Sequence record: OZ346201.1
Source: a phage
DNA length: 64,000 bases
Strand: one strand, 5' to 3'
Position numbers and translations under genes: made by a program. The notes beneath the pieces were generated by a model. It worked only from the letters and a program-made list of their open reading frames with translations, was not told the DNA's origin and ran no database searches. Numbering within the stretch: the first letter of the stretch is position 1; each line of letters starts with the position of its first letter. Shown in pieces: positions 38,478-56,959 of the stretch.

Positions 38478-38849
38478 ATGTTAGTAAAAGGTACCCACAC
38501 AGTCAAACAACGTATTGAAGTTGAGATTGATGATTGTGAGCTGAAGCATATTTTACGGTCATGCTCCAACGTTTTGCTCCTTAGTATTCTTCAGGAGCGA
38601 GCGGAGAACGAGTTCTTAAATGCATTGGCAGGCCGTCCCGGTGACTTCTGTGTGCGTAAGCGTGGTGACAACAAGTCGTGGTTGTGGGAGATCGATGCCG
38701 ACTGGGATTACCACAAAAATGAGGGTATAGATGAGCCTATTCGTGAACTGACGGACAAAGAGATTCAGATGTACAATGAAGTTTGTCATTGGGCAACACG
38801 CCAACAAATTTACCTAGACCCTGTGTGGCTGATTGAAAATAGTCGTTGA
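38478..38849 (+). CDS. hypothetical protein
   Basis: ATG 38478 after GAGGAGG; stop codon lies inside the -35 of the next promoter. Confidence 0.5.
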   Translation: MLVKGTHTVKQRIEVEIDDCELKHILRSCSNVLLLSILQERAENEFLNALAGRPGDFCVRKRGDNKSWLWEIDADWDYHKNEGIDEPIRELTDKEIQMYNEVCHWATRQQIYLDPVWLIENSR

Positions 38850-38874
38850 CAAGAAGTAAGGTTAGATGTAAGAT
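38846..38874 (+). promoter_or_regulatory. sigma70-type promoter
   Basis: TTGACA-N17-TAAGAT with upstream AAAATAGTCG. Confidence 0.6.
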
Positions 38875-38925
38875 ACTCCTCACAAACAGAGTATTGATTG
38901 TTAAATAATTAAGGAGACCTCTAAG

Positions 38926-39180
38926 ATGAAAATCATGTTGAAACCAGAATGCGTTGCAAACGACCGAGCTTTTAAAGATTGCACACTTGGCGCTACTTAT
39001 GAAGCAGAGTTTTGTGAGAACCCTTTGGTAAAAGCCCTTTTGGAAGAAGGGGCCCCTCTATCACAAGAAGAGCTTGATGAGCTGGAAAACTCAGCACAGT
39101 GCCTTACCTTTAAAGATGATGAAGGAGACTCTGTCTGGTGCACTGTTAACGAAGTAGTTTTTGTAAAAACTGAACATTAA
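38926..39180 (+). CDS. small protein, paralog family C
   Basis: 84 aa; SD AAGGAGA; shares K..D.AF.DCT...Y..DD.GD.V.CT..E pattern with 39244..39504. Confidence 0.55.
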   Translation: MKIMLKPECVANDRAFKDCTLGATYEAEFCENPLVKALLEEGAPLSQEELDELENSAQCLTFKDDEGDSVWCTVNEVVFVKTEH

Positions 39181-39183
39181 TAC

Positions 39184-39212
39184 TTGACAACAGCGATAGG
39201 ACCTAATACAAT
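39184..39212 (+). promoter_or_regulatory. sigma70-type promoter
   Basis: TTGACA-N17-TACAAT. Confidence 0.65.
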
Positions 39213-39243
39213 GGTCCTATCAAAACGAAAGGGGACCACAGCA

Positions 39244-39504
39244 ATGACCAAACAATATCAACGAATTAAAGCCAAGGTTAAGCCAGACTATCTAGAGAAG
39301 GACTCTGCTTTTCGGGACTGCACAGCTGACAAAGTTTACACAGGGGCCGTCCTGTTGAACGATAAACTTGAAGTAGATGTGCTGGGTAAAGAGGCCGTTA
39401 TCGAGGATGACAACGGTGACTGTGTTTTCTGCACCACACGAGAGCTAGAAGTCTTAGAATATTTCGGTGAAATCTTCAACTCCTTAGACGACGAGGAAGC
39501 GTGA
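39244..39504 (+). CDS. small protein, paralog family C
   Basis: ATG 39244 downstream of promoter; track start 39184 would overlap the promoter. Confidence 0.55.
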   Translation: MTKQYQRIKAKVKPDYLEKDSAFRDCTADKVYTGAVLLNDKLEVDVLGKEAVIEDDNGDCVFCTTRELEVLEYFGEIFNSLDDEEA

Positions 39505-39893
39505 TGAAAAATATTTGGGATATCGATATCTTTGAAGCCTCTAAGCTTGACGGTGCTGATGGAGTGATTATGGTGTCTGATGGCAAGGCAACACTAACTT
39601 CCGGAGATATCATCTATGCCTTGGACGAGCTGGCGCTTCTGAAATCTACCGGTAACACTTTGGAGGAGCGTCTTCAAGGATTCGCTTTCAAAGAAGGTAC
39701 AAATACAGCCATGATGTGCACCACACGGACAGTCCAGGTTGGTAACGGTGTCTATATGATTATTGCTGTGTGTCCTAAATTCAGCAACGTCAACAAAGAT
39801 GATGCTGACGCGGTCAACGATGTGGTTGTTCTCTTCGTGGGTGACGCTATGGCAGATCTGATGAATGCAGGAGAAGCAGCAAATGAAGACTGA
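39501..39893 (+). CDS. hypothetical protein
   Basis: 130-aa ORF. Confidence 0.5.
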   Translation: MMKNIWDIDIFEASKLDGADGVIMVSDGKATLTSGDIIYALDELALLKSTGNTLEERLQGFAFKEGTNTAMMCTTRTVQVGNGVYMIIAVCPKFSNVNKDDADAVNDVVVLFVGDAMADLMNAGEAANED

Positions 39894-40185
39894 AAACATC
39901 ACCCCAGCAGGGTTCTTAAAAGTATACCGTGAACTGCTATATACTACAGAGGACAGTGTTCTAGAGTATCCAGAATATCTTTTGCTGTATAAGTATCTGC
40001 AGGAGGCTGGTGAAAATCTGCCAGTTAGTGCAGAAGGTGGTCCAAACTGGATATACAGCGCATGGAGAAAGGTTGACATTCTCCCAAACCCAGGTAAAGA
40101 TATGGTAGTTTGGCAGCTTATCAACAACATCGGGATTCCAATCTTTGATGAAGCTGTTAAAATCTATTTTGAACTTGACGATTAA
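39883..40185 (+). CDS. hypothetical protein
   Basis: ATG 39883 with AGGAGA 9 nt upstream preferred over track start 39865. Confidence 0.5.
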   Translation: MKTENITPAGFLKVYRELLYTTEDSVLEYPEYLLLYKYLQEAGENLPVSAEGGPNWIYSAWRKVDILPNPGKDMVVWQLINNIGIPIFDEAVKIYFELDD

Positions 40186-40202
40186 TATCAGGAGACCTTA
40201 AG

Positions 40203-40448
40203 ATGACTGAAGCAGTTGCTCGCGCAGGACAGAAAGTACGTTGTGTTGAAGTAGGTTTTGGTGGCAAAGGGTGTCAAAACTTGACTCAAGGCAAGGAATA
40301 TGCTGTTATCTCTGGTGGTGGCGACGAAAGTATTGTGTTCGAGGGTCACATCCTGGATGCTGAAAACTTTGAAATCTTTGACGACGATGGGGATCCGATC
40401 ACCTGCCTGCTGGACGGGAATTGGGGAACTTTCGAAGTGATTGGCTAA
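40203..40448 (+). CDS. hypothetical small protein
   Basis: 81 aa, SD CAGGAGA. Confidence 0.5.
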   Translation: MTEAVARAGQKVRCVEVGFGGKGCQNLTQGKEYAVISGGGDESIVFEGHILDAENFEIFDDDGDPITCLLDGNWGTFEVIG

Positions 40449-40531
40449 CAAATACCTATTGTAATTTACAGAAGGGGATGCTAAAATAGTGTCTCCTTCT
40501 ATGTTGTTCAAATAAAATCGGAGATTCCATA

Positions 40532-40900
40532 ATGGAACAAATGAACGATCAAGAGTCGGTTGCGATGAACGAGCAAGAACAACCTCAAGAATTTTTCTTA
40601 GGGTTAAGTAAAGATCAAGTGTCTCTTTTGCTAGTGCTTTCTTCTTTCATGGGAAGACTTCAGGAGCTCACACAACAACCGGAGGCTGAACAATTATTTC
40701 AGGCTCTGCGTGAAGAAGAAAAATATCGTCGTTTGGACTATGCCTTAGGTTGGGTAGCTCAACAACGAGATATGCTGATGGCCCTCTCTGGGACCACAAG
40801 TTTTGCAATGGGCCTGTTGGCTCAAGTTCAGGACAAATTAATTCAAGCAGGGTTTGCACACACGGCAAACACTAACGAAGAACAAGGAGACAAAGAATGA
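40532..40900 (+). CDS. hypothetical protein
   Basis: 122-aa ORF, SD GGAGA, immediately upstream of SSB gene. Confidence 0.5.
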   Translation: MEQMNDQESVAMNEQEQPQEFFLGLSKDQVSLLLVLSSFMGRLQELTQQPEAEQLFQALREEEKYRRLDYALGWVAQQRDMLMALSGTTSFAMGLLAQVQDKLIQAGFAHTANTNEEQGDKE

Positions 40901-42111
40901 GCGTTATTCAACAATTCGCTAACCCGATGAATCCGCGTGAAACTGTTTTACTGGCTCACGGCATGATTAAACGCGTCAGCATCAAGCCTATCAAAGGTGC
41001 TGATCCTACAACAGGTATTAAAACCACTGTGTGGCAAGGTAAGAAAATTGAATCCAGCCACACCATCTCTTTACTGATTTCTGAACTGGATTCCTCTGAT
41101 AACCTACTTCAAGGTGGTGAAGAAGTTTGGATCAGTATGGGCGATAAGCTGCTTAAACCGGGTCATCAAGACTCTGTCTCTGTTAAAATTGATGACAAGT
41201 GGGAAACCGTAACGCCAGGATGGATCGTAAATATTCCTTTGAAGGCAAACGAGCATAACGGTAAGACCTATTACAAAGGCTCACTGGCTAAGATGGTTAA
41301 GCTGGGTGTAGGAGAGGCTCCAGCAGCGACTCAGCAGCAAAAACAGCAACAAGGTGTACAATCACAAGGCCAGAAGCAGAATGCCAATCAGGACGTTTTA
41401 CGCATCTATGGCGATGTGACTCAGATTGTTGGCAACGTGGTTACTGTCAATGACCACAAGATTGGCGAAGGTGCTATGGTTGTCACCGATGAGCAGCTTA
41501 AAGATCTGGTGGTAGGTGGTCGTGTTGCAGCCATTGTTGACAAAGACACCGGAAACATTATCAGTGGTTTCAAAGCCTACCCCCCTAAGGCAGAGAACGG
41601 CACTCAAGGCTCCGGTGGCAAGCGTAAATCCTCTTACGACCCTATCGGTGTGGAAACGGGGCATAGCATCAATGCGTTGCAGATCATCCTGGATCGCGGG
41701 TTTAAGGTAGACGACCCACTGGGCGTGGCTAAAACACTGCACGTAGTCACCATTGAGCTTAAGAAAGAGTATGCTCAGGCCACCAACCGAACTGAAGATG
41801 AAGTAGGTGCCAGTGTCGGTAATGCGGTGTTGAACGCTTGTCGCCGTATTGACAAGAAAACGAAAGTTGATGATTTTGCAGCGGCAATTACTGCAGAAGC
41901 AAAAGATGTCTTGACTAATCTGGCTGAGCCGTTGTACGATTGGATCAAGAACGGTGCTGGGTCAACTGACCATCAAGAACCTCAGGCTACCAAACAGGAA
42001 GCAGCTCCACAGCAAAACACTGTAGACGCTCCTCCTGTAAATGATGAGGAAGATGACCCAATGGATCAGAATCCAGCACAGTACTCCTTTGATGATGACA
42101 TCCCTTTTTAA
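40897..42111 (+). CDS. ssb: single-stranded DNA-binding protein with host-SSB-like acidic tail
   Basis: C-terminus ..YSFDDDIPF* matches the E. coli SSB tail DDDIPF; Gln/Gly-rich linker before it. Confidence 0.7.
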   Translation: MSVIQQFANPMNPRETVLLAHGMIKRVSIKPIKGADPTTGIKTTVWQGKKIESSHTISLLISELDSSDNLLQGGEEVWISMGDKLLKPGHQDSVSVKIDDKWETVTPGWIVNIPLKANEHNGKTYYKGSLAKMVKLGVGEAPAATQQQKQQQGVQSQGQKQNANQDVLRIYGDVTQIVGNVVTVNDHKIGEGAMVVTDEQLKDLVVGGRVAAIVDKDTGNIISGFKAYPPKAENGTQGSGGKRKSSYDPIGVETGHSINALQIILDRGFKVDDPLGVAKTLHVVTIELKKEYAQATNRTEDEVGASVGNAVLNACRRIDKKTKVDDFAAAITAEAKDVLTNLAEPLYDWIKNGAGSTDHQEPQATKQEAAPQQNTVDAPPVNDEEDDPMDQNPAQYSFDDDIPF

Positions 42112-42126
42112 CAATTAGTTAACATA

Positions 42127-42155
42127 GCCCTGCCCGAAAGGGTGGGGCATTTTTA
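42127..42155 (+). terminator. rho-independent terminator (near-identical to 31737-31763)
   Basis: GCCCTGCCC-GAAA-GGGTGGGGC followed by ATTTTTAT. Confidence 0.8.
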
Positions 42156-42173
42156 TATAAGGAGATCTGAAAA

Positions 42174-42590
42174 ATGACATTAGAAGATATCATTGTTAAA
42201 CCTGAGAACTATGACCAATACAACCTGTCAACTCAATCTGTAGACCTTGGATGCGCCACGGTCAGTGCGTGGCCGGTTAACGGAAAAGAGCTAGATAAAT
42301 GCTTAGAAGCTCACATGTCTATTAACAAGTTTCTGGATGAAAATACTCACTGGCTTGAGGGTGCAGGAGTATATGCTTCATGGTTGGAGAGTATGGGATT
42401 CGACTACCAATCTGAAGAAGGGTGGTGGAGCTATTTAGCTATCTGTCCAGAGACGCTACAATGCTTCATGAAATACTCTGAAGATTTAGAGTACCGGGCG
42501 GTGGTTGATAGTGCTATTGCCCGTTATAGCCGTAAACCTTTTTCCCACGACATTAAAACTGTGGAAGAGTTTGTTGAAGTTTTCTGTTGA
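42174..42590 (+). CDS. hypothetical protein
   Basis: 138-aa ORF, SD AAGGAGA. Confidence 0.55.
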   Translation: MTLEDIIVKPENYDQYNLSTQSVDLGCATVSAWPVNGKELDKCLEAHMSINKFLDENTHWLEGAGVYASWLESMGFDYQSEEGWWSYLAICPETLQCFMKYSEDLEYRAVVDSAIARYSRKPFSHDIKTVEEFVEVFC

Positions 42591-42686
42591 CACAGGTTGA
42601 AAGGTGTGCAATTATAACTTCATATGACTGGAGGACGTGATGAACGAAGAAAACTGGGATGTATAACTAACAGGAGGCCACTGCCC

Positions 42687-42884
42687 ATGATTTATCGAAT
42701 CCGTGTAAGAGAAGATGCACCAGGCTGTTACTTTGACTGGCGTGGGTGGTGGTTTCTCCACCCAATGGATGGACTCACAGATAGAATGCTGGATGCTGCC
42801 CTTTATACAGATACCGACATAGAGTATAATCTCTATCTGAAGGACGGTATAGATAACGGCCTGTTTGAAGCAATTCCTGTGTAA
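42687..42884 (+). CDS. hypothetical small protein
   Basis: ATG 42687 with CAGGAGG upstream preferred over track start 42624. Confidence 0.5.
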   Translation: MIYRIRVREDAPGCYFDWRGWWFLHPMDGLTDRMLDAALYTDTDIEYNLYLKDGIDNGLFEAIPV

Positions 42885-42952
42885 GAGACTGTGATAGCTA
42901 TGTTTTATGATCTTCCTGTAGCGCCACCACCTGTTGAACCCGGAGAACTAAG

Positions 42953-43378
42953 ATGATCTATGAAATGCCAAAACTGATTCGTGACGATGCCCAAAACGCT
43001 CACACCATTATTATGGGCAAACGCATGGATATTATTTGTCATAAAGATTTCTGGGAAGGAAGTTACTTCACAGAGTATTTTGGTAAACTGGATAATGGTC
43101 TGCTGATCCAGTTCTACACCGATGCGGAAAACAACATTCCCTGGGAGTTCGAAACTGAAGATATTCATAAACTTTTCACCTTCCTCGATATTAAGGTTAA
43201 GGCCAAGTTTGAAGAGGGTGAGTGCGACGATTGTGGATTTTATGAGGTAACAGATTTCTATCTTCCAAGTGGTAAGAACCTTTACTATGAAAGCCACTTC
43301 GGTAACTCAAATATGCCACAGTGCTGGACTGAGTTTTTTGAAATTGTGGAAGAGGAGCTGGCATATCGTGATTATTGA
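42953..43378 (+). CDS. hypothetical protein
   Basis: 141-aa ORF, SD GGAGAA. Confidence 0.55.
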   Translation: MIYEMPKLIRDDAQNAHTIIMGKRMDIICHKDFWEGSYFTEYFGKLDNGLLIQFYTDAENNIPWEFETEDIHKLFTFLDIKVKAKFEEGECDDCGFYEVTDFYLPSGKNLYYESHFGNSNMPQCWTEFFEIVEEELAYRDY

Positions 43379-43826
43379 TACTGTAGAGGGAGATTTAATC
43401 TCCCTTTTTAAGAGCGGTGCTGGTCACCTGATCCACGGTTGTAACTGCTTCCACACAATGGGTAAGGGTGTAGCAAAACAGATTGCCCGTGAGTTCCCTC
43501 AAGCATTGGAAGCTGATAAAATGACTATGCACGGTTGCCTAAGTAAACTGGGCGCGTTCTCCCGCTGGGAGCACTTATCTCCGAGAGGTATTGTCTACGG
43601 AATAAATCTGTATACTCAGTTCTACCCAGGGCCTAATGCTGAATATTTCTCAATACTGAAAGGCTTTGAGCGAGTCAATGAAGTATTTGAGGGGTCGATT
43701 TTACCATTCTACATCCCTAAGATCGGGTGCGGCATAGGTGGTTTGAAGTGGGAACATGTAGAGGACATTATTAACCTTGCCACTTTTGATATAGATATTA
43801 TCGTGGTGGAGTACAAAGAGTGTTGA
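43368..43826 (+). CDS. macro-domain protein (ADP-ribose binding / hydrolase candidate)
   Basis: ..IHGCNCFHTMGKGVAKQIAREFP.. matches the macro-domain nucleotide-binding motif (N-x-V-N..G-x-MGKG-[LV]-A..FP); GTG start at 43368 with GAGGAG upstream. Confidence 0.6.
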   Translation: MIIDTVEGDLISLFKSGAGHLIHGCNCFHTMGKGVAKQIAREFPQALEADKMTMHGCLSKLGAFSRWEHLSPRGIVYGINLYTQFYPGPNAEYFSILKGFERVNEVFEGSILPFYIPKIGCGIGGLKWEHVEDIINLATFDIDIIVVEYKEC

Positions 43827-43851
43827 CAGCTATATTTTAAGATGGTATAGT
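43823..43851 (+). promoter_or_regulatory. sigma70-type promoter
   Basis: TTGACA-N17-TATAGT; stop codon of the macro gene lies inside the -35. Confidence 0.65.
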
Positions 43852-43880
43852 CGCCACAACGATTAAGACAGAGGAGCACT

Positions 43881-44075
43881 ATGGAGACTAAAATCTTAAT
43901 TCTAGCTGTGATAGATACAACAGAAGGAGCCATGTTTGAATCTGCAGGAGGGTATTTCTACCTGCCCTATGGAAAAAGAACTTCCGAGCCGAGTAAAGAT
44001 TCAATCCTTAAAGTGTTCCCGTGTGCTTTCTGGCTGGAGATCTTGGTAGAAGATTGCAGAGGACTAGGGAGATAA
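43881..44075 (+). CDS. hypothetical small protein
   Basis: 64 aa, SD AGAGGAG. Confidence 0.5.
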   Translation: METKILILAVIDTTEGAMFESAGGYFYLPYGKRTSEPSKDSILKVFPCAFWLEILVEDCRGLGR

Positions 44076-44077
44076 TT

Positions 44078-44272
44078 ATGAGAAACAAGAAAGAGCTTTA
44101 CTCTGGTGAGTGGATAAACGATCAACAGGTAGGAGAGGTAACCTGCTTCCGGTGCTTTACTAGGTACAATCTTAAAACTGCACCAAAAAGTGTTCCAAAG
44201 ACTGACGGTTATTACATAAAAGAACCTCATTGCCCAAAATGCAAATGCCGATTATACTGGAGTAACCTGTAA
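44078..44272 (+). CDS. small zinc-ribbon protein
   Basis: CFRC ... CPKCKC pairs; ATG 44078 preferred to track start 44021. Confidence 0.5.
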   Translation: MRNKKELYSGEWINDQQVGEVTCFRCFTRYNLKTAPKSVPKTDGYYIKEPHCPKCKCRLYWSNL

Positions 44273-44276
44273 AAGA

Positions 44277-44304
44277 TTGACATCTGAAAACTGCGGTGTA
44301 TAAT
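44277..44304 (+). promoter_or_regulatory. sigma70-type promoter, consensus hexamers
   Basis: TTGACA-N16-TATAAT. Confidence 0.75.
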
Positions 44305-44335
44305 ATAAACATAAACTAGCAGAGAGTGATATATT

Positions 44336-44527
44336 ATGGTAATTTTTAATCGAGACGGTATCATAGTTAGACAGCACCCATTCCTTGAATACTATCAAAT
44401 TGAGCAATGGTGCTACGGGGATTGCAGTCACTCCTATGGGCAAAGTTGGGGATATCGCACAGTTTTTGAATCAACAGATCTTGATAAGGTAAGACAGAAA
44501 GTTTTAGAACTTATTAACAACAAGTGA
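44336..44527 (+). CDS. hypothetical small protein
   Basis: 63-aa ORF downstream of consensus promoter. Confidence 0.5.
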   Translation: MVIFNRDGIIVRQHPFLEYYQIEQWCYGDCSHSYGQSWGYRTVFESTDLDKVRQKVLELINNK

Positions 44528-44534
44528 GTATGAT

Positions 44535-44870
44535 ATGGTAACATTAGAAAGACGTAAAGCTATCGCCGCCACACTGGCAGACATCTTTTGGGAGTGCAAT
44601 TTAAAAGATACCCGATATTGTGGCGCATCTGTAGATGCATTATTCCCACGGCCCACTATTGTTGCAATGGGAAACCTGTCAAACGTGGTGTATGGAGCAT
44701 GGGACAAAGAAGGTGGATTTTATATCTGGCAACCTGACTACGGGACCTGGAAAGAGGTAAGGGGTGCGGATGACTTTGGGCCTGCAGTTGCCAAAACGAT
44801 GGATGGCTGGAAAATCTATGTCGGTAACGACATGAAGCTGAAAGGCGAGATTGTTTACTGGTTACCTTAA
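44535..44870 (+). CDS. hypothetical protein
   Basis: 111-aa ORF. Confidence 0.5.
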   Translation: MVTLERRKAIAATLADIFWECNLKDTRYCGASVDALFPRPTIVAMGNLSNVVYGAWDKEGGFYIWQPDYGTWKEVRGADDFGPAVAKTMDGWKIYVGNDMKLKGEIVYWLP

Positions 44871-44891
44871 TAAAACGCAGGAGATAAAGTT

Positions 44892-50911: not shown

Positions 50912-50918
50912 ATAAAGT

Positions 50919-50946
50919 GTTGCAATAACCTAAAAACCTGCTATAT
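50919..50946 (+). promoter_or_regulatory. sigma70-type promoter (weaker -35)
   Basis: TTGCAA-N16-TATATT. Confidence 0.45.
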
Positions 50947-51000
50947 TAAAACTCAAGGGGCAAGACGTTTGCCCCCACACAAAACAAAGAGGAAAACATC

Positions 51001-51381
51001 ATGAAAAACACTACTAAAGCTATTGACACCGTTATGTTTAACCTGGTTACCTTTCGCGAGGATATGAAAGATCTTCCACGTGAAACAGTGTGCGATCACA
51101 TTGAAAACTATCGCAAACTAATCAAAGAGTTGCCTTTAAAACGTGACCAGTATGCGGCTAACGCCATGCTTAATGCCATGATCAAAAAGATGATTCAGTG
51201 TGATTTAACTCTGGCCTATGACTATGCGGGTGGTCGTTTTGCAGTATACAATCAGCCCGTGCCCGGTATGGGCACCACCGAAGAATTGCACGCGCTCAAT
51301 CTAAAACAAGACGTATGGGATAACATGCCCCGCGTGGTGGTGTGGGCAGAAAGCGGAAAGATTTACGGCGATAATTTTTAA
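51001..51381 (+). CDS. hypothetical protein
   Basis: 126-aa ORF, SD AAGAGGA. Confidence 0.55.
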   Translation: MKNTTKAIDTVMFNLVTFREDMKDLPRETVCDHIENYRKLIKELPLKRDQYAANAMLNAMIKKMIQCDLTLAYDYAGGRFAVYNQPVPGMGTTEELHALNLKQDVWDNMPRVVVWAESGKIYGDNF

Positions 51382-51390
51382 TCAGGTAAC

Positions 51391-51417
51391 AGGCGGCATA
51401 TTTGCCGCCTTATTGTT
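51391..51417 (+). terminator. hairpin terminator
   Basis: AGGCGGCA-TATT-TGCCGCCT followed by TATTGTT. Confidence 0.55.
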
Positions 51418-51445
51418 AAACAGAGTTGCAAAAGAGGTACATAGA

Positions 51446-51817
51446 ATGGAATTTATTATTTTGGCTGTAGTAGTTGCCTTGTTCAACGCCTGGATCGCTG
51501 GCAAGATGGGTAGATCCGCCTTTTTATGGTTTATTATATCTATTTTCCTGGGGGTGGTTGCAACTATTGTACTTGTTATCCTTGCAATTGTTGACAAGGG
51601 GAATAATAGAAAGGGTAAAGTATTTTCAGACCTGTACGACGCTCAAACGTTTGTCAACGCCTATTATAGTGATCTTCCAGTCTCCCTACGCTGCAGCCTG
51701 GCACAACAAGTTTTCGATGAGGCTAAAACCAGAGATCAAGCCCATGAGATATGTTTAACTGAGGCGGATCGCCTATTTGAGAGGAATAGAAAATATGTGG
51801 GCCAACCGTTTAAATAA
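51446..51817 (+). CDS. membrane protein (two predicted TM helices)
   Basis: MEFIILAVVVALFNAWIAG.. and FLWFIISIFLGVVATIVLVILAIV; ATG 51446 with AAGAGG upstream. Confidence 0.5.
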   Translation: MEFIILAVVVALFNAWIAGKMGRSAFLWFIISIFLGVVATIVLVILAIVDKGNNRKGKVFSDLYDAQTFVNAYYSDLPVSLRCSLAQQVFDEAKTRDQAHEICLTEADRLFERNRKYVGQPFK

Positions 51818-52040
51818 TGCCACGTTAATTAATCCCTTTAGTGAAGATTTGAAGCCAGCCGCCTGGCGTGATGGATTCAATAACGAACGCTTTATTTTCA
51901 AGCCTGATCTTGAGGAATTTTATAACAATGGATCGAACAACAGCGGAGATAATTTTTCTTGGGATGTGCGTGGTGATGGTACTCCTGGGGGCCATTGTAA
52001 ACCACGTCACTACTACCAGGAGGAAAGAGGGAGACGATGA
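51795..52040 (+). CDS. hypothetical small protein
   Basis: ATG 51795 with GAGAGGAA upstream; overlaps end of previous ORF. Confidence 0.4.
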   Translation: MWANRLNNATLINPFSEDLKPAAWRDGFNNERFIFKPDLEEFYNNGSNNSGDNFSWDVRGDGTPGGHCKPRHYYQEERGRR

Positions 52041-52156
52041 CAACCAAGGATAAGCCCCGTACCGATAAGGCGCGCCGGGTTATGGTATGGCTTGAGATCA
52101 TCGCCCTTGAAATATTGCTAGGCGTAGGGATGTACTTTATCGCTGTAAGTAACTAA
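52037..52156 (+). CDS. small hydrophobic peptide (39 aa)
   Basis: ATGA overlap with upstream ORF; C-terminal TM segment; followed by terminator. Confidence 0.35.
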   Translation: MTTKDKPRTDKARRVMVWLEIIALEILLGVGMYFIAVSN

Positions 52157-52160
52157 GAGC

Positions 52161-52188
52161 GGCCCCCGATCATGGGGGCCTATCTTTT
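52161..52188 (+). terminator. rho-independent terminator
   Basis: GGCCCCC-GATCAT-GGGGGCC followed by TATCTTTT. Confidence 0.75.
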
Positions 52189-52209
52189 AAAAAATTTTTC
52201 TTCCGGGGT

Positions 52210-52238
52210 GTTGCAATCCGGTCCGGAATGTGGATAAT
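52210..52238 (+). promoter_or_regulatory. sigma70-type promoter (weaker -35)
   Basis: TTGCAA-N16/17-GATAAT. Confidence 0.45.
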
Positions 52239-52294
52239 AACAATCAACGGGGAGCTAATCCCCACCACCACAAAAACCAGAAAGGAGAAACAAA

Positions 52295-52495
52295 ATGAGC
52301 AACAATATCCGCGTTATTAACTTCAAAAAAGAAGAAAAAATTGCCGTGCTGATTGACGGTCAAGAAATCTTCAAGGGCGACTATGAAGATCATCAAACGG
52401 CGATTAGTATCACTCGCGTGATTGGTTATCATAATTTCTACCCCCAAGGCGCTGAGGCAGCAGTTAAACGAATCAAAGAGATTGTAGGCCTGTAA
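52295..52495 (+). CDS. hypothetical small protein
   Basis: 66 aa, SD AAAGGAGAAA. Confidence 0.5.
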   Translation: MSNNIRVINFKKEEKIAVLIDGQEIFKGDYEDHQTAISITRVIGYHNFYPQGAEAAVKRIKEIVGL

Positions 52496-52548
52496 AATTT
52501 ATTTTTAGATGGCCTTGACTTCAGGGCCATCGATAAAGTAAATTTAAA
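52496..52548 (+). repeat. repeated intergenic element, copy 3
   Basis: AATTTATTTTTAGATGGCCTTGACTTCAGGGCCATCGATAAAGTAAATTT; two substitutions relative to copies 1 and 2. Confidence 0.8.
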
Positions 52549-52588
52549 CCCTGTTAAAATACCACGCAGTTAACAAGGAGTGATAGAC

Positions 52589-52888
52589 ATGTTTATCCAG
52601 GCTAATAATCTTTATTTCTTTGATGGTCAGATCGTAGATGGTGTGGAAGTGGAGATCACCGGGTGCCCTGGCGGTCAGGCTATGACTTTTCGGAATAATG
52701 CCTTTGATGATTCTCATATCGTTATGAGAATGGAAGTTACGAAGCTGGACGACAAGAAAACACTTATTGACTATTCTGTGAAAGATCATCCAGACTACCG
52801 CATGATCCATGGTGATTTGTGCATTGTTGACCGTGACAAGGTGGGCGGCATTGTGATCGCTATTGTGAACGATGTTTTCTCAAACTAA
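52589..52888 (+). CDS. hypothetical protein
   Basis: ATG 52589 with AAGGAG upstream. Confidence 0.5.
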   Translation: MFIQANNLYFFDGQIVDGVEVEITGCPGGQAMTFRNNAFDDSHIVMRMEVTKLDDKKTLIDYSVKDHPDYRMIHGDLCIVDRDKVGGIVIAIVNDVFSN

Positions 52889-52905
52889 TTTCAGCAGGCG
52901 ATTTT

Positions 52906-53256
52906 ATGAAAGTCAAACTATATTACCTTAATGAGCTTAACCCCCTTGCCCAGGTCCGCGCCCTAGCTAATACCTTGATTTGTGAGAAATCTGTATATTG
53001 TGTTGAGCTTAACGCCATGCGTGAACGTCTCAAAGGTGGTTACTTTGACATCCATGCTGCAATCAACGGCCTGAATATGGAATTTATACGCTTACGTAAC
53101 AGCCGCCGGAATCTGGCAAGAATGGAACAAGATCCGGCCCACCTTCGTAAGCTGGTTATTGAAAATCATCTGATGTTTAATGCCGAGGGTGATTATTACC
53201 ATTTTCACCGCAAACGCTGGTACCGTGGCGGCAATACAGGCAAGAATGCAAAATAA
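52906..53256 (+). CDS. hypothetical protein
   Basis: 116-aa ORF; followed by AGGCCC..GGGCCT hairpin and a strong terminator. Confidence 0.5.
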   Translation: MKVKLYYLNELNPLAQVRALANTLICEKSVYCVELNAMRERLKGGYFDIHAAINGLNMEFIRLRNSRRNLARMEQDPAHLRKLVIENHLMFNAEGDYYHFHRKRWYRGGNTGKNAK

Positions 53257-53291
53257 GGCCCCTAGCAGGGCCTGCAGCAATATAATCACAT

Positions 53292-53326
53292 AAAGGCCAT
53301 GCGGTTGCATGGCCTTTATTATTTTG
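53292..53326 (+). terminator. rho-independent terminator
   Basis: AAAGGCCATGC-GGTT-GCATGGCCTTT hairpin followed by ATTATTTT. Confidence 0.85.
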
Positions 53327-53373
53327 GCGTTACAACGGCATACGGGGCGCTTAAAAAATTTTTAAAGAAGTAC

Positions 53374-53401
53374 TTGCATCATTCCCGACAATATGGATAA
53401 T
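53374..53401 (+). promoter_or_regulatory. sigma70-type promoter (weaker)
   Basis: TTGCAT-N16-GATAAT. Confidence 0.4.
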
Positions 53402-53458
53402 AAGAGTTGTCGAGGGGGAGGCCCCCAATCGTTGACCAGATAGATAGGAGTTAAAATC

Positions 53459-53743
53459 ATGGCTATTGTTACCGCTGGCGATGTAGTAGAAATGGAAGCA
53501 AAATACTTAAAAGCGGGTATGCACATCCTACGGAATGATCAAGAGCTATTATTAACGATGGTTGACTATAATCACGGCCAGGATTATCCAAGCATCGACT
53601 ACTTTTTTGAGTATGTTGATGAAGAGTTGAAAGAGGATGAGGCCTATTGCGGTGAGTTCTGCAACTTCTTTTGTCCTGATGAGGTTGTAAAGGTTATTTA
53701 TCAACCTGGCGTAGCTTTCCCGCTGCACGCTATCAATAAATAA
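53459..53743 (+). CDS. hypothetical acidic small protein
   Basis: 94 aa; followed by ACCTGGCGGGGCC-GAAAA-GGCCCC hairpin. Confidence 0.5.
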   Translation: MAIVTAGDVVEMEAKYLKAGMHILRNDQELLLTMVDYNHGQDYPSIDYFFEYVDEELKEDEAYCGEFCNFFCPDEVVKVIYQPGVAFPLHAINK

Positions 53744-53798
53744 ACCTGGCGGGGCCGAAAAGGCCCCCAATTATGAAAATAAAGAGAGGCAAATCATC

Positions 53799-54032
53799 AT
53801 GATGGAACAAATTAAACGCGCCGAGGCTATTAATGGCAACGTGATCTATTTTGTCAGCAAAAACGAAAAAGGCGTACCATATGCGGCAGTAATAGTACAA
53901 CCTGACGGCGATTATTGGTTTACTGTGTACGGCGCTTATTCTTTTGGGCGTCCAGTGCATGATAAAATTTTGAAAGTAGCGAACCCTACCGGGAAGAATA
54001 TCACAGCAGAAAAATTTTTTGAAAATAGTTGA
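53799..54032 (+). CDS. hypothetical small protein
   Basis: 77 aa; stop codon TGA embedded in the -35 TTGACA of the next promoter. Confidence 0.5.
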   Translation: MMEQIKRAEAINGNVIYFVSKNEKGVPYAAVIVQPDGDYWFTVYGAYSFGRPVHDKILKVANPTGKNITAEKFFENS

Positions 54033-54056
54033 CATGACCATATAAGACTGTAATAT
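54029..54056 (+). promoter_or_regulatory. sigma70-type promoter
   Basis: AAAATAGT-TGACA-N16-TAATAT. Confidence 0.6.
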
Positions 54057-54107
54057 ATAAATCAAAGGGGGCAACGAACCCCACCAACTACAAAGAGGAT
54101 AAAAATC

Positions 54108-54287
54108 ATGGCTATTATTGCAAAGACTGAGATCATAGGCTTAGATTCTATTCTCCTCGCATATGAGGAAGCTATAGAAATGTATGTGGTTTCCTATGGT
54201 GAGTATATCCGTGAATATAAATCTATTGATCTGGCTTTTGAATGTTATATCCGCCAGGTTAATAAAGCGTACGATGATTATCGTTAA
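54108..54287 (+). CDS. hypothetical small protein (59 aa)
   Basis: ATG after AAAGAGGATAAAAATC; just below track cut-off. Confidence 0.45.
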   Translation: MAIIAKTEIIGLDSILLAYEEAIEMYVVSYGEYIREYKSIDLAFECYIRQVNKAYDDYR

Positions 54288-54294
54288 AATAGTT

Positions 54295-54323
54295 TGACAA
54301 CAGCCATCTTACAAAGCATAATA
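54295..54323 (+). promoter_or_regulatory. sigma70-type promoter
   Basis: AAAATAGT-TTGACA-N17-CATAAT. Confidence 0.6.
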
Positions 54324-54374
54324 CATAAGGCGGTGGAATGGTCCGCCACCTGGAACAAAGAAGAGGTAAACACC

Positions 54375-54620
54375 ATGAAAAGCAATAAAGGTTATAACGG
54401 TTACAAAAACAAAACTCATTGGAATGTAAGCCTTTGGATTAATAACGATGAGTCATTGTACCGGTTGGCCCAAGGCTTTATTAACGCCAATGCTAATCGT
54501 AATGATGCGGCGCGGGATATGATGCTTTTTCTGGAGCTAACCGGACAAGATAAGACCCTGGACGGCTTCAAGTACAGCACTACGGCGATCCGTGCCGCGA
54601 TGGTTGGAATGAAACACTAA
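54375..54620 (+). CDS. hypothetical small protein
   Basis: ATG 54375 with AAGAGGTAAA upstream; track start 54294 would overlap the promoter. Confidence 0.5.
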   Translation: MKSNKGYNGYKNKTHWNVSLWINNDESLYRLAQGFINANANRNDAARDMMLFLELTGQDKTLDGFKYSTTAIRAAMVGMKH

Positions 54621-54697
54621 AAGCACATAGCTGCCTTACCCTGGGGCTGTGGTAGCGGCCCCATGAATAAGGTTACTAACAGAAGAGAATAAACACC

Positions 54698-54802
54698 ATG
54701 AAACAGAAATTAATCGATGCAGTGATCTTGGTTATTGCCCTGGGTATTGGCCTGATTGCAACCATGTCTAATATGATCTTGTCTTCCAACGGTATCGGGT
54801 GA
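54698..54802 (+). CDS. small hydrophobic peptide (34 aa)
   Basis: Single TM-like segment; weak SD. Confidence 0.3.
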   Translation: MKQKLIDAVILVIALGIGLIATMSNMILSSNGIG

Positions 54803-54811
54803 GGTTGGCAA

Positions 54812-55027
54812 ATGATCACTAACAAAACAGGCAAAACGGAATTTTTACGCAACTTACAGATCGGCAAGCCTGAGATCTGGTACTGCACTAAAACACCGCG
54901 TGACGAAATGAAAGACTTCACCGCCACGCTGCAACGGGTAAAGATATCTATCACGCAGAAAAAGGCCTTACTAGTGGTGGAAGGGGAGATCCCCCAAACC
55001 GTTGTTATAGTTGATCGTACAGCATAG
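54812..55027 (+). CDS. hypothetical small protein
   Basis: 71-aa ORF. Confidence 0.45.
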   Translation: MITNKTGKTEFLRNLQIGKPEIWYCTKTPRDEMKDFTATLQRVKISITQKKALLVVEGEIPQTVVIVDRTA

Positions 55028-55118
55028 TTTAATTTATACAGATACCTGAAAATTAACCAACAAAGCATAAACAGGCGGTTACCGCCGCCTTAAACGTAGC
55101 AGAAAGAGGATAGGCACA

Positions 55119-55403
55119 ATGAAAAAGATGATCGCAGTGGTTACCCTGGTTGTTGGACTTAATGCGCCTGTAATGGCTAAAGAGCTGGCAAAAGAGGTTA
55201 ATCTAACGGATATTCATGCCGTCAATCAAATCGGGGTTACTTATCGCTTATGCCTTGCCGCTAAAACTTTTAAGGACGGCACAACAGAGTACTACGGATT
55301 CGAGGGTATCCGGTGCGGTGAGCTTGCTCGCGACCTTAAGGAAGATCCAGACCTGGAGGATCTGCCCATAACCGTGAACGGGAAAACTTACGTGAACCGT
55401 TAA
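55119..55403 (+). CDS. secreted small protein (signal peptide)
   Basis: N-terminus MKKMIAVVTLVVGLNAPVMA followed by polar mature region; SD AAAGAGGA. Confidence 0.55.
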   Translation: MKKMIAVVTLVVGLNAPVMAKELAKEVNLTDIHAVNQIGVTYRLCLAAKTFKDGTTEYYGFEGIRCGELARDLKEDPDLEDLPITVNGKTYVNR

Positions 55404-55405
55404 CC

Positions 55406-55540
55406 ATGAGAAAGATAATTATTACCATGGGGATCGTGGCGGCAATGTTGGCGATCTTTCCCTTTATGGTTAGGTATGTGCTGATTAATGTTGTCCTGGT
55501 AGTCAGCGATCTGGTGTTATATATTAACTCATTGTTTTAG
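55406..55540 (+). CDS. small hydrophobic peptide (44 aa)
   Basis: Overlaps stop of upstream gene; two hydrophobic stretches; no clear SD. Confidence 0.3.
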   Translation: MRKIIITMGIVAAMLAIFPFMVRYVLINVVLVVSDLVLYINSLF

Positions 55541-55548
55541 GCGCGATA

Positions 55549-55740
55549 ATGACAGCGGAAGAAGTTAAAAAAGTACTGGCGGTACTGCGTTATCATAATC
55601 ATTGCAAGGTGAAGAATGATCCTGATTATCTTGATTCATCCCTTGAAGAGGATACACTACAAGCCATAAGCAACATGCAAGAATTGCTTAAGCGTATGAC
55701 AGAGAAAAACCGACCGGACTACATAGGGGGTAAAATATGA
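55549..55740 (+). CDS. hypothetical small protein
   Basis: 63-aa ORF. Confidence 0.45.
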   Translation: MTAEEVKKVLAVLRYHNHCKVKNDPDYLDSSLEEDTLQAISNMQELLKRMTEKNRPDYIGGKI

Positions 55741-56048
55741 TCGCTATTACGCCAACCGTTTTAGATTGGTATCGGCAACGCATAGCGCCTCCGCTGGCTA
55801 TCTTCAAAGATGCGGAAGCAAAACAACGCCGGATCTCAATACATGAGATCATCAACCTTAACGCTGGAGGCACACCATACCGCCCAGGACCTGGCCGTGA
55901 GATGGACAATACATTGGCGATCCTGAAGATACGCCGTAAACGGTCCTCCCTTACGCTGGATTCATTACACACAATGCAGTCTCCGTTCCAGGTGACTGGG
56001 AAACGGATCGCCAGGTCCTGGACAAAGGCCAATGACCGGACCGTATAA
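55737..56048 (+). CDS. hypothetical protein
   Basis: 103-aa ORF, ATGA overlap. Confidence 0.5.
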   Translation: MIAITPTVLDWYRQRIAPPLAIFKDAEAKQRRISIHEIINLNAGGTPYRPGPGREMDNTLAILKIRRKRSSLTLDSLHTMQSPFQVTGKRIARSWTKANDRTV

Positions 56049-56183
56049 ATAAAAAGTGTTTTGGTACTGATTTTGGGGTTGACTTGTTCGGCCCCTTTTG
56101 CTATTCTTATTAAACGGGCGGCACTTGGGAACAGGGGGAGACAATCACCAGGCCTGCCTGTCATATAAGAACTATAAAAACCG

Positions 56184-56212
56184 TTGACATCTGCCAGGGG
56201 GTGGGGTAACAT
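56184..56212 (+). promoter_or_regulatory. sigma70-type promoter
   Basis: TTGACA-N17-TAACAT. Confidence 0.5.
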
Positions 56213-56266
56213 TTATCTTGAAGGGGCAAAGGTGCCCACACAACAACCAGAAGAGAGGAAAACACT

Positions 56267-56539
56267 ATGTCAAGCTGGATTAATCAAGAAGTCGAATCAC
56301 GTTTTAATGCTATTTGGGATCTCATCGAAAAAGAAGACGGCACATCAAGCCCCTACCTCAACAATTTGGAATTCCATTTTGTGGAAGCGATGAACGCAGA
56401 ACATGATCACGAAGGTGGTGCGGACGAGTTCGCTAAAGGGTATGGCTTCAACAATGCCAACGAAATGATCGAGGCGGTTGTACTCCAGGCTGAGGAAGAT
56501 TATCAATTAAAAACGCTTGAATTCTGCCGCCGCAAGTAA
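56267..56539 (+). CDS. hypothetical acidic small protein
   Basis: 90 aa, SD AGAGAGGAAAA. Confidence 0.5.
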   Translation: MSSWINQEVESRFNAIWDLIEKEDGTSSPYLNNLEFHFVEAMNAEHDHEGGADEFAKGYGFNNANEMIEAVVLQAEEDYQLKTLEFCRRK

Positions 56540-56599
56540 TAAGATAATGACACGGGCCGGGAGGCCCACTAATCAGAACCACACAAAGAGGTAAACATC

Positions 56600-56863
56600 A
56601 TGAAACGTCTTGATCAGCTTAAACTAGTTCAGTACATGGCCTACAAAGTTCTTGAAGTCCAAAAAGGTAGCAAAAAAGAGGTTTGCGAGAAAGCGTACAA
56701 GATCTTTACCCGTAAAAAAGATGATTGGATGTTACGCCAGACCAAAAAAGCCGATATCTTGGGGTACCTGGAAGAAGAGATCCGACTTGAAGAGCAAGAA
56801 GAGATCCGCCGCAGTGAGGCAGATTATCAGGCAGCCTGGGAAAACTGGATGAGCAACAAATAA
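56600..56863 (+). CDS. hypothetical small protein
   Basis: 87 aa, SD AAAGAGG. Confidence 0.5.
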   Translation: MKRLDQLKLVQYMAYKVLEVQKGSKKEVCEKAYKIFTRKKDDWMLRQTKKADILGYLEEEIRLEEQEEIRRSEADYQAAWENWMSNK

Positions 56864-56930
56864 TACAACAAGTTGCACGATCAGGGGGCAATAAAGCCCC
56901 TTGATCACATAAAAATTATGCTATCCTTGG

Positions 56931-56959
56931 TTGACAAGGATCGGCAGTTTTGCTATATT
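56931..56959 (+). promoter_or_regulatory. sigma70-type promoter
   Basis: TTGACA-N17-TATATT. Confidence 0.65.

Follow-up and report, generated by a model that had tools for sequence, protein, structure and literature searches.

Introduction

Why should a phage place near-consensus host promoters in front of many of its smallest genes, and what are the hairpins for that follow about half of them? These questions are raised by a 64,000-nucleotide (nt) stretch of phage DNA from sequence record OZ346201.1, which at its full length is called the window here, and in particular by a block of small genes on its + strand (37768-57463) that lies 3' of the DNA polymerase gene. Over the 20 kb that surround the promoter array, identity with Escherichia phage AlexBoehm is 95.9%, and 317 phage records match, nearly all of them rV5-like members of the genus Vequintavirus, which places the window among the rV5-like coliphages of that genus. 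With gene coordinates taken from the AlexBoehm annotation transferred onto the window, the block holds 57 genes (37768-57427), every one of them on the + strand, with a median product of 86 amino acids (aa) and 38 products of 100 aa or fewer, while 19% of the block is non-coding. The block is a hyperplastic ORFan region bearing promoter cassettes. The answer argued for here, to which a probability of roughly 0.6 can be given, is that it is punctuated by at least 19 cassettes of the type known as PeSLs, the promoter-early stem-loop units described in T4-like phages, with a 5' hairpin that would stabilize the mRNA and a cassette that would also serve as a joint for gene exchange.

In the mechanism proposed, the upstream gene ends on a stop codon located within or next to an A-rich tract that resembles an UP element (AAAATAGTnG), or else inside the -35 box itself, and unmodified host sigma70 RNA polymerase would read TTGACA, a spacer of 16-17 nt and TAnnnT, presumably early in infection. 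Initiation would take place about 7 nt past the -10 box, and a G/C-rich hairpin, present in about half of the cassettes and starting 9-11 nt past the -10 box (about +3 to +5), would then form the 5' end of the RNA, followed by a U-poor, A/C-rich and unstructured leader with a Shine-Dalgarno sequence (SD) and then the ATG. A base-paired 5' end would hinder RppH and 5'-end-dependent RNase E and so stabilize the short messages, and in read-through transcripts the same hairpins would lie between cistrons as possible barriers. Since parts of the cassettes are repeated (A/T tract plus TTGACA, stem-loops, leader with SD and ATG), they would further act as break-and-join points at which gene-sized modules are gained, lost and exchanged, including with T4-like Krischviruses.

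The Promoter Array

The original prediction counted at least 17 TTGACA-N16/17-TAxxxT promoters in front of small open reading frames (ORFs) of this region. The array proved to be real and far beyond chance, and the strict count, at 13, is lower than claimed. Taken literally, TTGACA-N16-18-TAnnnT occurs 25 times in the whole window against 2.7 expected, and the 13 strict + strand sites within 38846-56959 (38846, 39184, 43823, 44277, 46912, 47191, 47657, 48338, 49891, 50203, 54029, 56184 and 56931) compare with 0.38 +/- 0.6, and a maximum of 3, in 500 dinucleotide shuffles. All 13 have spacers of 16 or 17 nt, as had been proposed. At two more sites a perfect -35 box is combined with a -10 box that does not begin with TA (42587, AATTAT; 54294, CATAAT), and at another four the -35 box is TTGCAA, TTGCAT or TTGAAT (50920, 52211, 53374 and 56517), so that relaxing the -10 box raises the total to 15 and relaxing the -35 box as well raises it to 19. 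The non-coding fifth of the block harbors 15 of the 25 + strand copies of TTGACA and none of the ten on the - strand. The upstream context that the promoters were said to share can be recognized in AAAATAG, which has seven copies in the block, five of them immediately 5' of TTGACA.

The 19 cassettes were then traced in 8-10 related genomes, where their identity is 75-100%, and the sequences were aligned; GenBank phage records were used for this, as a scan of IMG/VR with a 207-aa protein had yielded only two close relatives. Variable columns make up 2% of the -35 box and 2% of the ATG, against 11% of the -10 box, 32% of the spacer, 29% of the leader and 17% of the 20 nt upstream, and strong purifying selection thus acts on exactly the promoter elements. 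Because the -35 columns vary as little as the start codons, the promoters can be taken as functional and of the host sigma70 type, as originally supposed. A loose consensus scan returned 72 sites where 42 were expected, so weak matches are mostly noise, and AT-rich intergenic DNA might be thought to throw up such matches at random; with 13 strict sites against 0.38, all strand-specific and intergenic, and with -35 boxes conserved like ATG codons, that explanation has practically no chance of being right and is refuted by the conservation as far as anything short of experiment can refute it.

All five of the overlaps with upstream stop codons that had been reported (38847, 43824, 48335, 50211 and 54030) were confirmed. 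At 38847, 43824 and 54030 the stop is the TGA within TTGACA, at 48335 a TAA abuts the -35 hexamer and at 50211 a TAA lies in the spacer, 2 nt 3' of the hexamer. Further cases are the TGA within TTGACA at 42588 and 56185 and a spacer TAA at 56537. Only seven of the 57 genes end on TGA, and for five of those the codon is the TGA of a -35 box. Five embedded stops in 15 perfect boxes are what a random reading phase (one in three) gives once a gene reaches the box; the non-random feature is the abutment of gene end and promoter, with 12 of the 19 promoters overlapping the upstream stop or beginning within 8 nt of it. Stops fall within -35 boxes as a consequence of such close packing and need no separate mechanism.

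The view that each small gene forms an independent unit did not hold, as 57 genes share 19 promoters and about seven intrinsic terminators. The numbers of genes between successive promoters are 1, 7, 3, 2, 9, 1, 1, 2, 4, 1, 1, 4, 3, 2, 1, 8, 1, 1 and 1, and one promoter per gene is the rule in sub-clusters only, for example at 46.9-50.3 kb.

Hairpins behind the Promoters

Inspection of all intergenic gaps found a G/C-rich hairpin soon after the -10 box in ten cassettes. With the start of transcription assumed to lie 7 nt past the -10 box, the leaders are bimodal: they have either 23-28 nt and a minimum free energy (MFE) of 0, or 42-51 nt and a hairpin that starts at predicted position +1 to +8, mostly +3 to +6. 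At 10 of the 19 promoters the 40 nt past the -10 box fold with an MFE of -8 kcal/mol or lower, as do 22% of background 40-mers (binomial p = 0.004). The leaders 3' of the hairpins consist of 55% A, 20% C, 16% G and 9% T, and their SD is unpaired.

Across the relatives the loops vary far more than the stems (57% against 22% of columns, or 2.6-fold), and all orthologous variants still form a hairpin at the same place. Since stems made of G-runs and C-runs can re-pair in shifted registers, covariation was replaced by a test of stability retention, in which natural variants changed the MFE by a mean of +0.01 kcal/mol and an equal number of random substitutions cost 4.5 kcal/mol (Wilcoxon p = 7e-14, n = 48, a p-value that is optimistic, the variants being phylogenetically linked); 27 of the 48 variants beat at least 90% of the random mutants. 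The stability of the hairpins is under selection. Internal positions that depart from Watson-Crick pairing are G.T in five cases and A.C in one, an excess of G.T that weakly favors a structure on the sense strand.

The arrangement extends well beyond the close relatives. Only about 10% of the block DNA is shared by L017, a phi92-like Justusliebigvirus, and L018, a Phapecoctavirus, and in both the composite is the more stereotyped one: TTGACA-N16/17-TAnnnT behind an A-rich tract, then (gtat)CACATAG and a hairpin, with an A/C-rich leader before the SD and ATG, the hairpins being GGCGGGAA..TTCCCGCC or GGGCGGCA..TGCCGCTC. Thirteen genomes, including Justusliebigvirus and Phapecoctavirus, gave 103 promoter-anchored hairpins with 45 distinct sequences and 30 distinct stems, and 78% of the 103 begin 9-11 nt past the -10 box, with a mode of 10. 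A covariance model was attempted and given up, as MAFFT set the GGCGGGAA.. and GGGCGGCA.. stem families one column apart and no valid consensus structure resulted.

What the hairpins do can be approached by asking what they are not. They are not intrinsic terminators, because the leaders after the ten promoter-proximal hairpins lack a U tract. The idea that they might be terminators for antisense transcripts was rejected as well, as the distant relatives have CACATAG before the hairpin and no A-run. A related proposal is that the stem-loops are attenuators or insulators that damp read-through from upstream, with each promoter setting the level of its own gene, and are not 5'-end stabilizers. 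In RB49 one such stem-loop cut lacZ expression as strongly as rrnB T1 (PMC2839356), and three kinds of structure in the block, namely the inverted repeat at promoter 39184, the repeated element called motif B and a hairpin at about 56885-56905, lie 5' of any predicted start, where only read-through RNA would be affected. The ten promoter-proximal hairpins, however, lie 3' of their own promoter's predicted start and would attenuate its transcript too; they have no U tract, an attenuator has no need of the tight 9-11 nt offset, and the block has separate canonical terminators. Attenuation is thus an unlikely account of the hairpins in general, and one that probably applies to the stem-loops 5' of predicted starts. 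For the promoter-proximal hairpins the role is probably stabilization of the mRNA 5' end, as the analogy with known bacterial leaders suggests.

It might also be imagined that the palindromes are DNA operators, or RNA hairpins, bound by a phage regulator that retunes or shuts off the early genes. The stem GGCGGGAA/TTCCCGCC recurs in two cassettes of the window and in many of phi92-like phages and Phapecoctavirus, and at about +4 to +24 (predicted) it would occupy a classic roadblock position. A binding site would hardly be expected to come as 30 distinct stems at one and the same position, with loops that vary freely and even flip to the reverse complement; selection keeps the stability and not the sequence, and the G.T positions break the DNA palindrome, all of which makes this reading highly improbable. 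Lambda-type nut/boxB sites were rejected on similar grounds, the loops being the most variable part (57%), the hairpins of three cassettes being inverted in relatives and Rfam giving no match.

Cassettes as Probable Points of Gene Exchange

Compared with ten relatives, the block shows about ten gene-sized indels, and four of these have cassette-derived repeats at both ends. In one relative (L004), 540 additional bp lie precisely between A/T plus TTGACA boxes that match those at 49868 and 49891 of the window, the leader repeat ACTAATCA..CACAAAGAGG..ATG (56568-56603 in the window) stands on both sides of an additional rV5 gene, the gene at 54375-54620 is flanked by TAAACACCATGAAA, and a module of promoter and gene at 56902-57447, with GC stem-loops at both ends, is absent from L003 and L015. 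Several indel junctions thus lie at cassette repeats, as would be expected of break-and-join points. Beside these stands an insertion site at 42107, where rV5, L004 and L012 carry an extra 585-638 bp that the window phage and AlexBoehm do not have; the rV5 insert is annotated as endonuclease VII (ORF213), and it is probably a free-standing mobile nuclease gene.

Exchange appears to have reached the T4-like phages as well. The 63-aa gene at 44336-44527 has 89% protein identity to ORF260 of Phi1, the phage from which PeSLs were defined, and its DNA is 84.7% identical over 44330-44531 only (2495-2696 in Phi1; L019, EF437941), the homology stopping at the SD/ATG and at the stop codon. Because high identity is combined here with unrelated flanks, the comparison indicates a recent transfer of a single gene between unrelated myovirus lineages, the rV5-like phages and the T4-like Krischviruses (Phi1, RB49-like). 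The Phi1 cassettes have the AAAATAG..TTGACA context in common with the window phage, and the rV5 record notes similarity to RB49 for four more ORFs of the block. In Phi1, three tandem copies of AACCGAAAATAAGTTGTTGACAAGTAC precede the shared gene.

If cassettes move genes, the hairpins could be mere hot spots for recombination, or passengers of spreading cassettes, with no function in expression. Three cassettes (47657, 50203 and 50920) have an exact reverse-complement hairpin in some relatives, with the loop inverted and the stem unchanged (47695-47713, 50241-50259 and 50957-50975; compared relatives L004, L001/L002/L012-L016 and L012), and such whole-hairpin inversion reads as the signature of template switching or of recombination within a palindrome. 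Together with the one indel that has stem-loops at both ends, and with the crossovers of RB49 mini-circles that were mapped within a stem-loop (PMC2839356), the inversions speak for this possibility. The constant distance to the -10 box across two phage subfamilies, and a stability kept up against mutational decay, point instead to selection at each locus, so that hairpins without a function in expression are improbable.

Weighing the Case and the Timing of Expression

Several observations count against the interpretation of the cassettes as PeSL-type units with stabilizing 5' hairpins. Among the 15 promoters with a perfect TTGACA six carry a hairpin, and the four promoters with a weak -35 box were picked partly through their own hairpins, a mild selection bias; the hairpins at 48338, 53374 and 54294 are weak by shuffle z-score. 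Column-wise covariation was not significant, with 45 of 448 pair cells changed and 42% of these still pairing against 31-53% in slid controls, and the sole two-sided compensatory changes were found in the inverted repeat of promoter 39184 (GGACC/GGTCC to GGGCC/GGCCC), which brackets the -10 box. That repeat spans the -10 box and motif B wraps a -35-like box, so some stem-loops cannot be 5'-terminal. The leaders of two genes, at 53799 and 55119, have GC hairpins (53756-53773 and 55073-55090, +) but no recognizable sigma70 promoter upstream, and either very weak promoters are present there or these hairpins have a role in read-through or processed transcripts. Repeats occur at only four of about ten indels, with none at g115, g123 or g125, and the similarity between cassettes extends over 20-50 nt, compared with about 100 bp for the PeSLs of RB49; the longest repeats within the genome are 50 nt (motif B, 94-96%), 34 nt (79%), 25 nt (92%) and leaders of 20-31 nt. 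Both "early" and "5'-terminal" rest on a start that is predicted at about 7 nt past the -10 box, and a literature search for RNA-seq, transcription start site, timing or half-life data on rV5-like phages, phi92 and PVP-SE1 found none; a PNAS 2026 paper on the BASEL collection mentions Vequintavirinae only for their sensitivity to daunorubicin.

The early timing in particular has a competitor, which accepts the promoters as real and has them active throughout infection by a host polymerase that is not reprogrammed, so that the block would be no distinct early region. The authors of the rV5 genome noted sigma70-like promoters genome-wide and suggested that modification of the polymerase might not occur (PMC3606486), and the window too has consensus sites outside the interval of the array (21878, 31686, 37984, 59760(-) and 60584(-)). 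The same authors, on the other hand, found a T4-late-like motif 5' of structural genes and an Srd-like anti-sigma candidate (PMC3606486), and the density of the promoters peaks among short ORFans, like in the regions of Certrevirus and of T4-like PeSLs that have been read as early. The rV5 "late" motif TGGTAAAATA has 19 matches in the window where 6.6 would be expected, some of them within the block, and does not separate temporal classes. Activity throughout infection is somewhat unlikely on this evidence, and early expression of the block is plausible because it matches the published inferences for rV5, Certrevirus and the T4-like PeSLs.

The proposal can be taken a step further, to a hairpin that is a dedicated 5'-end protection module for early mRNAs, conserved across Vequintavirinae and Stephanstirmvirinae, in a cassette that doubles as the recombination joint for moving ORFans from one phage lineage to another, unrelated one. 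This extended version is put forward tentatively, at rather less than even odds.

Individual Cassettes, Terminators and Motif B

The 19 cassettes, all on the + strand, are described here in their order along the window, with hairpin strengths given as shuffle z-scores. Nine of them do not appear in the promoter list of rV5 (39184, 42587, 43823, 46912, 50920, 52211, 53374, 54294 and 56517).

The first cassette (38846-38928, equivalent to P220 of rV5) consists of AAAATAGTCG, TTGACA-N17-TAAGAT and a 45-nt leader without a strong hairpin, with the ATG at 38926 and the upstream gene's TGA (38847-38849) within the -35 box. In the second (39184-39246; TTGACA-N17-TACAAT), a 9-bp inverted repeat at 39195-39221 flanks the -10 box on both sides. 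The start that AlexBoehm annotates for the following gene, 39211, falls inside this -10 hexamer, and an in-frame ATG at 39244, 33 nt further 3' and preceded by the SD AAAGGGGA, suits the promoter better and is probably the true start; some published gene starts in the block are thus probably too long. The third cassette (42587-42689) has the weak -10 box of TTGACA-N17-(TG)AATTAT, an ATG at 42687 and the upstream TGA at 42588-42590 within its -35 box, and the fourth (43823-43883; TTGACA-N17-(TG)TATAGT) has a 23-nt unstructured leader and holds in its -35 box the TGA (43824-43826) of a Macro-domain gene. The fifth (44277-44338; P205 of rV5) is a perfect TTGACA-N16-TATAAT with a 25-nt unstructured leader and drives the 63-aa gene shared with Phi1. 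The sixth (46912-46992) joins AAAATAGTCG to TTGACA-N16-(TG)TATTAT and a 44-nt leader, in which the only hairpin is a weak one of 4 bp, and the seventh (47191-47254; TTGACA-N17-TACACT; P195 of rV5) has a 26-nt unstructured leader and an upstream TAA that ends 3 nt 5' of the -35 box.

The eighth cassette (47657-47735; P194 of rV5) has the full composite of TTGACA-N16-TAAACT, a hairpin (GGCGGGAAtgtTTCCCGCC, 47695-47713, 10 nt past the -10 box; z = -4.3) and an A/C-rich leader. The ninth (48338-48419; TTGACA-N16-(TG)TATACT; P192 of rV5), whose -35 box is abutted by the TAA at 48335-48337, has the weak hairpin GGGAAaacTTCCC at 48379-48391 (z = -1.0). The tenth (49891-49955; TTGACA-N16-TATACT; P186 of rV5) has a 28-nt unstructured leader and, 23 nt 5', an orphan half-promoter of A/T tract and TTGACA at 49868, so that the two boxes at 49868 and 49891 form a double -35 "scar" (49860-49896, +). 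The eleventh (50203-50290; P185 of rV5) consists of AAAAATAGTG, TTGACA-N16-TATACT with the upstream TAA (50211-50213) in its spacer, and the hairpin GGCGGGAAgttTTCCCGCC (50241-50259), 10 nt past the -10 box (z = -4.5). The next three have relaxed -35 boxes: the twelfth (50920-51003; TTGCAA-N16-(TG)TATATT) with hairpin GGGGCAAgacgtTTGCCCC at 50957-50975, 9 nt past the -10 box (z = -3.2); the thirteenth (52211-52297; TTGCAA-N16-GATAAT), 3' of the terminator at 52161-52190, with GGGGAgctaaTCCCC at 52249-52263, 10 nt past the -10 box (z = -2.5); and the fourteenth (53374-53461; TTGCAT-N16-GATAAT), 3' of the terminator at 53290-53329, with GGGGGaggCCCCC at 53414-53426 (z = -0.5), whose GGGGG/CCCCC has become GGAGG/CCTCC in L004.

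The fifteenth cassette (54029-54110; P174 of rV5) has GAAAATAG, TTGACA-N16-TAATAT with the upstream TGA (54030-54032) within the -35 box, and a hairpin at 54067-54082 (z = -2.0). The sixteenth (54294-54377), with AAAATAGT, TTGACA-N17-CATAAT and the hairpin GGCGGTGG..CCGCCACC at 54329-54350 (z = -1.3), precedes the gene at 54375-54620, a DUF7249 protein gene that rV5 does not have. The seventeenth (56184-56269; TTGACA-N17-TAACAT; P168 of rV5) has the hairpin GGGCAaaggTGCCC at 56224-56237 (z = -1.9), and the TGA in its -35 box (56185-56187) ends a doubtful 29-aa ORF. In the eighteenth (56517-56602), the weak TTGAAT-N17-TAAGAT with the upstream TAA (56537-56539) in its spacer is followed by the hairpin GGGCCgggaGGCCC at 56554-56567, 8 nt past the -10 box (z = -2.4), and by the leader at 56568-56603 that is repeated around the extra gene of rV5. 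The nineteenth (56931-57010; TTGACA-N17-(TG)TATATT; P164 of rV5) has a 42-nt leader without a stable hairpin and forms, with the gene at 57008-57427, a module between the GC stem-loops at about 56885-56905 and at 57446-57463.

Intrinsic terminators on the + strand are found at 42127-42158 (a GC stem and T-run, t213 of rV5), 49718-49747 (after the gene ending at 49709), 51391-51420 (t184), 52161-52190 (t181) and 53290-53329 (t177), with a terminator-like hairpin and T-run at 56075-56105 (+), and the block is closed by one at 57446-57473 (t164). Upstream of the block, a strong terminator made up of GGCCCTGCCCgaaaGGGTGGGGC and a T-run lies about 21 nt past the -10 box of the promoter at 31686 (31686-31760, +; P231 of rV5), and its stem is near-identical to that of the terminator at 42127. 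By prediction the transcript from this promoter would end after about 45-50 nt unless read-through occurs, and would be either a small RNA or the product of a promoter-terminator composite.

Motif B is present in four + strand copies. The first (48136-48185) has a TAA, a T-rich tract, the stem GATGGCC/GGCCATC with TTGACT in the loop and then AATAAAGTAAATT, and reads TTGACT-N18-TAAATT; the copies at 48757-48806 and 52495-52544 are 94% and 96% identical to it, and the variant at 49092-49141 has the stem GGTGGTCC/GGGCCATC and a loop without the -35-like box. In general, an upstream TAA and a T-rich tract are followed by a stem of 7-8 bp with TTGACT in its loop and by AATAAAGTAAAYT, a layout that also reads as TTGACT-N18-TAAAYT. 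All four copies are kept in those close relatives whose compared locus spans the site, and of 160 stem-pair cells 157 are unchanged, two have gone to another standard pair and one is broken, while the loop varies; relative to the other three, the variant copy has two changes that give G.U pairs valid on the sense strand only. Motif B may, with low confidence, be a class of cassette with its stem-loop around the -35 box.

Other Features of the Window

The region had been called typical of host-takeover and anti-defense islands. Pfam and PHROG scans of 30 block proteins left 28 without a Pfam family, and the results are uninformative on an anti-defense role of these genes, for which the label is a reasonable guess. 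The two proteins with a Pfam family have a DUF7249 and a Macro domain. The Macro-domain gene (43368-43823, +; PF01661, E = 1.3e-7; PHROG 335, "phosphatase") is annotated in rV5 as a homologue of Tk.4 of RB49, and its TGA stop is the one within the -35 box at 43823. Its product may be an enzyme that removes ADP-ribose, and because of this possible activity it is a candidate counter-defense gene.

A scan of the window for tRNAs found none, and at gathering thresholds Rfam had no match in the block, its only match being a group I intron upstream (37080-37315, +; RF00028, 64.7 bits, E = 4e-14). This intron splits the gene for DNA polymerase into a first exon ORF at 34673-37012 and a second exon that ends at 37718. 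In AlexBoehm the polymerase coding sequence is two joined pieces with a putative homing endonuclease gene inside the span; no such gene was noted in the window's intron. Within the block, a tandem array at 45957-46207 consists of a 65-nt unit in 2.3 near-perfect copies (98% matches) with degenerate copies on both sides, in a 364-nt gap after the gene ending at 45653 where AlexBoehm annotates two tiny ORFs. Many relatives lose collinearity at 46133, within the array, which could be a set of iterons or a recombination hot spot.

Beyond the block, the + and - strand genes converge on an ORF-poor stretch of about 2.3 kb (about 57470-59700), in which Rfam found nothing and which the rV5 authors label "non-coding". 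On the - strand, a promoter close to consensus (TTGACA-N16-TAAAAT, with its first base at 59760) is directed into it, and because this promoter points inward the stretch may give rise to a long non-coding transcript or hold unannotated small genes. Lastly, about 20 GenBank records labeled "Campylobacter phage" (UNVERIFIED, host C. jejuni) have 92-95% identity to the block and are classified as Vequintavirus; their host labels are probably wrong or due to contamination.

Significance and Comparison with Known Systems

The promoter array alone adds little to what is known, the type phage being already annotated. Of more consequence, if the interpretation holds, would be a 5'-end module that is selected for stability and not for sequence, coupled to a U-depleted leader, by which short early messages could outlast 5'-end-dependent decay, be it that of the host or decay accelerated by the phage. 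PeSL-type cassettes would then not be limited to T4-like phages and would constitute a shared "plug-and-play" format for unrelated virulent coliphages, which would help to explain the turnover in repertoires of host-takeover and counter-defense genes. The compact design of consensus promoter, 5' hairpin and U-poor leader, with more than 100 cases in 13 genomes, would offer a test of selection for 5'-end protection, and the cassettes would be ready-made expression parts.

As a prediction, the array is already in the literature on this group of phages. The rV5 paper lists 33 sigma70-like promoters (Kropinski et al. 2013, PMC3606486), and its Table S4 holds orthologues of ten of the 13 strict sites (P220, P205, P195, P194, P192, P186, P185, P174, P168 and P164) and, outside the interval, equivalents of 37984, 31686 and 60584(-), with P220, P205, P195A/B, P192, P186, P168 and P164 entered as "Sigma70-type promoter" features in GenBank DQ832317. 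In Certrevirus CB7 and CR3 the promoter AAAA(N3)TGTTGAC(N19)TATAAT has been described (Buttimer et al. 2020), and the likeness extends to the UP-like context (AAAATAGT here), to clustering among short hypothetical ORFs and to the reading as a "likely early gene region". Both papers list promoters only, and do so without the conservation across genomes, the nine extra sites, the hairpin, the stop overlaps or a role in gene shuffling.

For the hairpin, the transcripts of phage T7 phi10 offer a comparison, as they carry a 5' stem-loop that is a comparable stabilizer of mRNA. In E. coli, mRNAs are known to be stabilized by 5' secondary structure, an effect that runs through RppH and RNase E (PMC3997798, which cites Emory, Bouvet and Belasco), and the leaders of ompA and papA (Emory, Bouvet and Belasco 1992) have, like the cassettes, a stable hairpin near the (here predicted) 5' end, an unstructured leader and an accessible SD. 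Those are leaders of single genes, however, whereas here a modular repeat recurs at about half of the promoters in the block and the 5' end is a predicted one.

The closest known system is the PeSL of RB49 and Phi1 (Arbiol et al. 2010, PMC2839356; Comeau et al. 2014, PMC4122927), in which a stop codon in an AT-rich tract is followed by a strong sigma70 promoter, by a polyG/polyC stem-loop in one of five positions, 3' of the -10 box among them, and then by the SD and ATG. PeSLs cluster in hyperplastic regions rich in ORFans, and genes are shuffled there when PeSLs recombine with one another (PMC2839356, PMC4122927), and in the searchable literature they are discussed for T4-like phages only. 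The cassettes of the window resemble the PeSLs of RB49/Phi1, PST and nt-1 in the upstream stop within an AT-rich tract, the sigma70 consensus, the G-run/C-run stem-loop with G.T pairs, the SD and the ATG, and also in the ORFan-rich hyperplastic setting, the indels that in several cases break at cassettes, the AAAATAG..TTGACA context and at least one ORF at 89% identity. They differ in lineage, being found in Vequintavirinae and Stephanstirmvirinae as opposed to Straboviridae, and in the stem-loop, which is mostly fixed 9-11 nt past the -10 box here and in RB49 and Phi1 is placed for the most part between the two boxes or on top of the -10 box. What is new in the rV5-like lineage is the composite of promoter and hairpin together with its PeSL-like behavior, neither of which had been described there.

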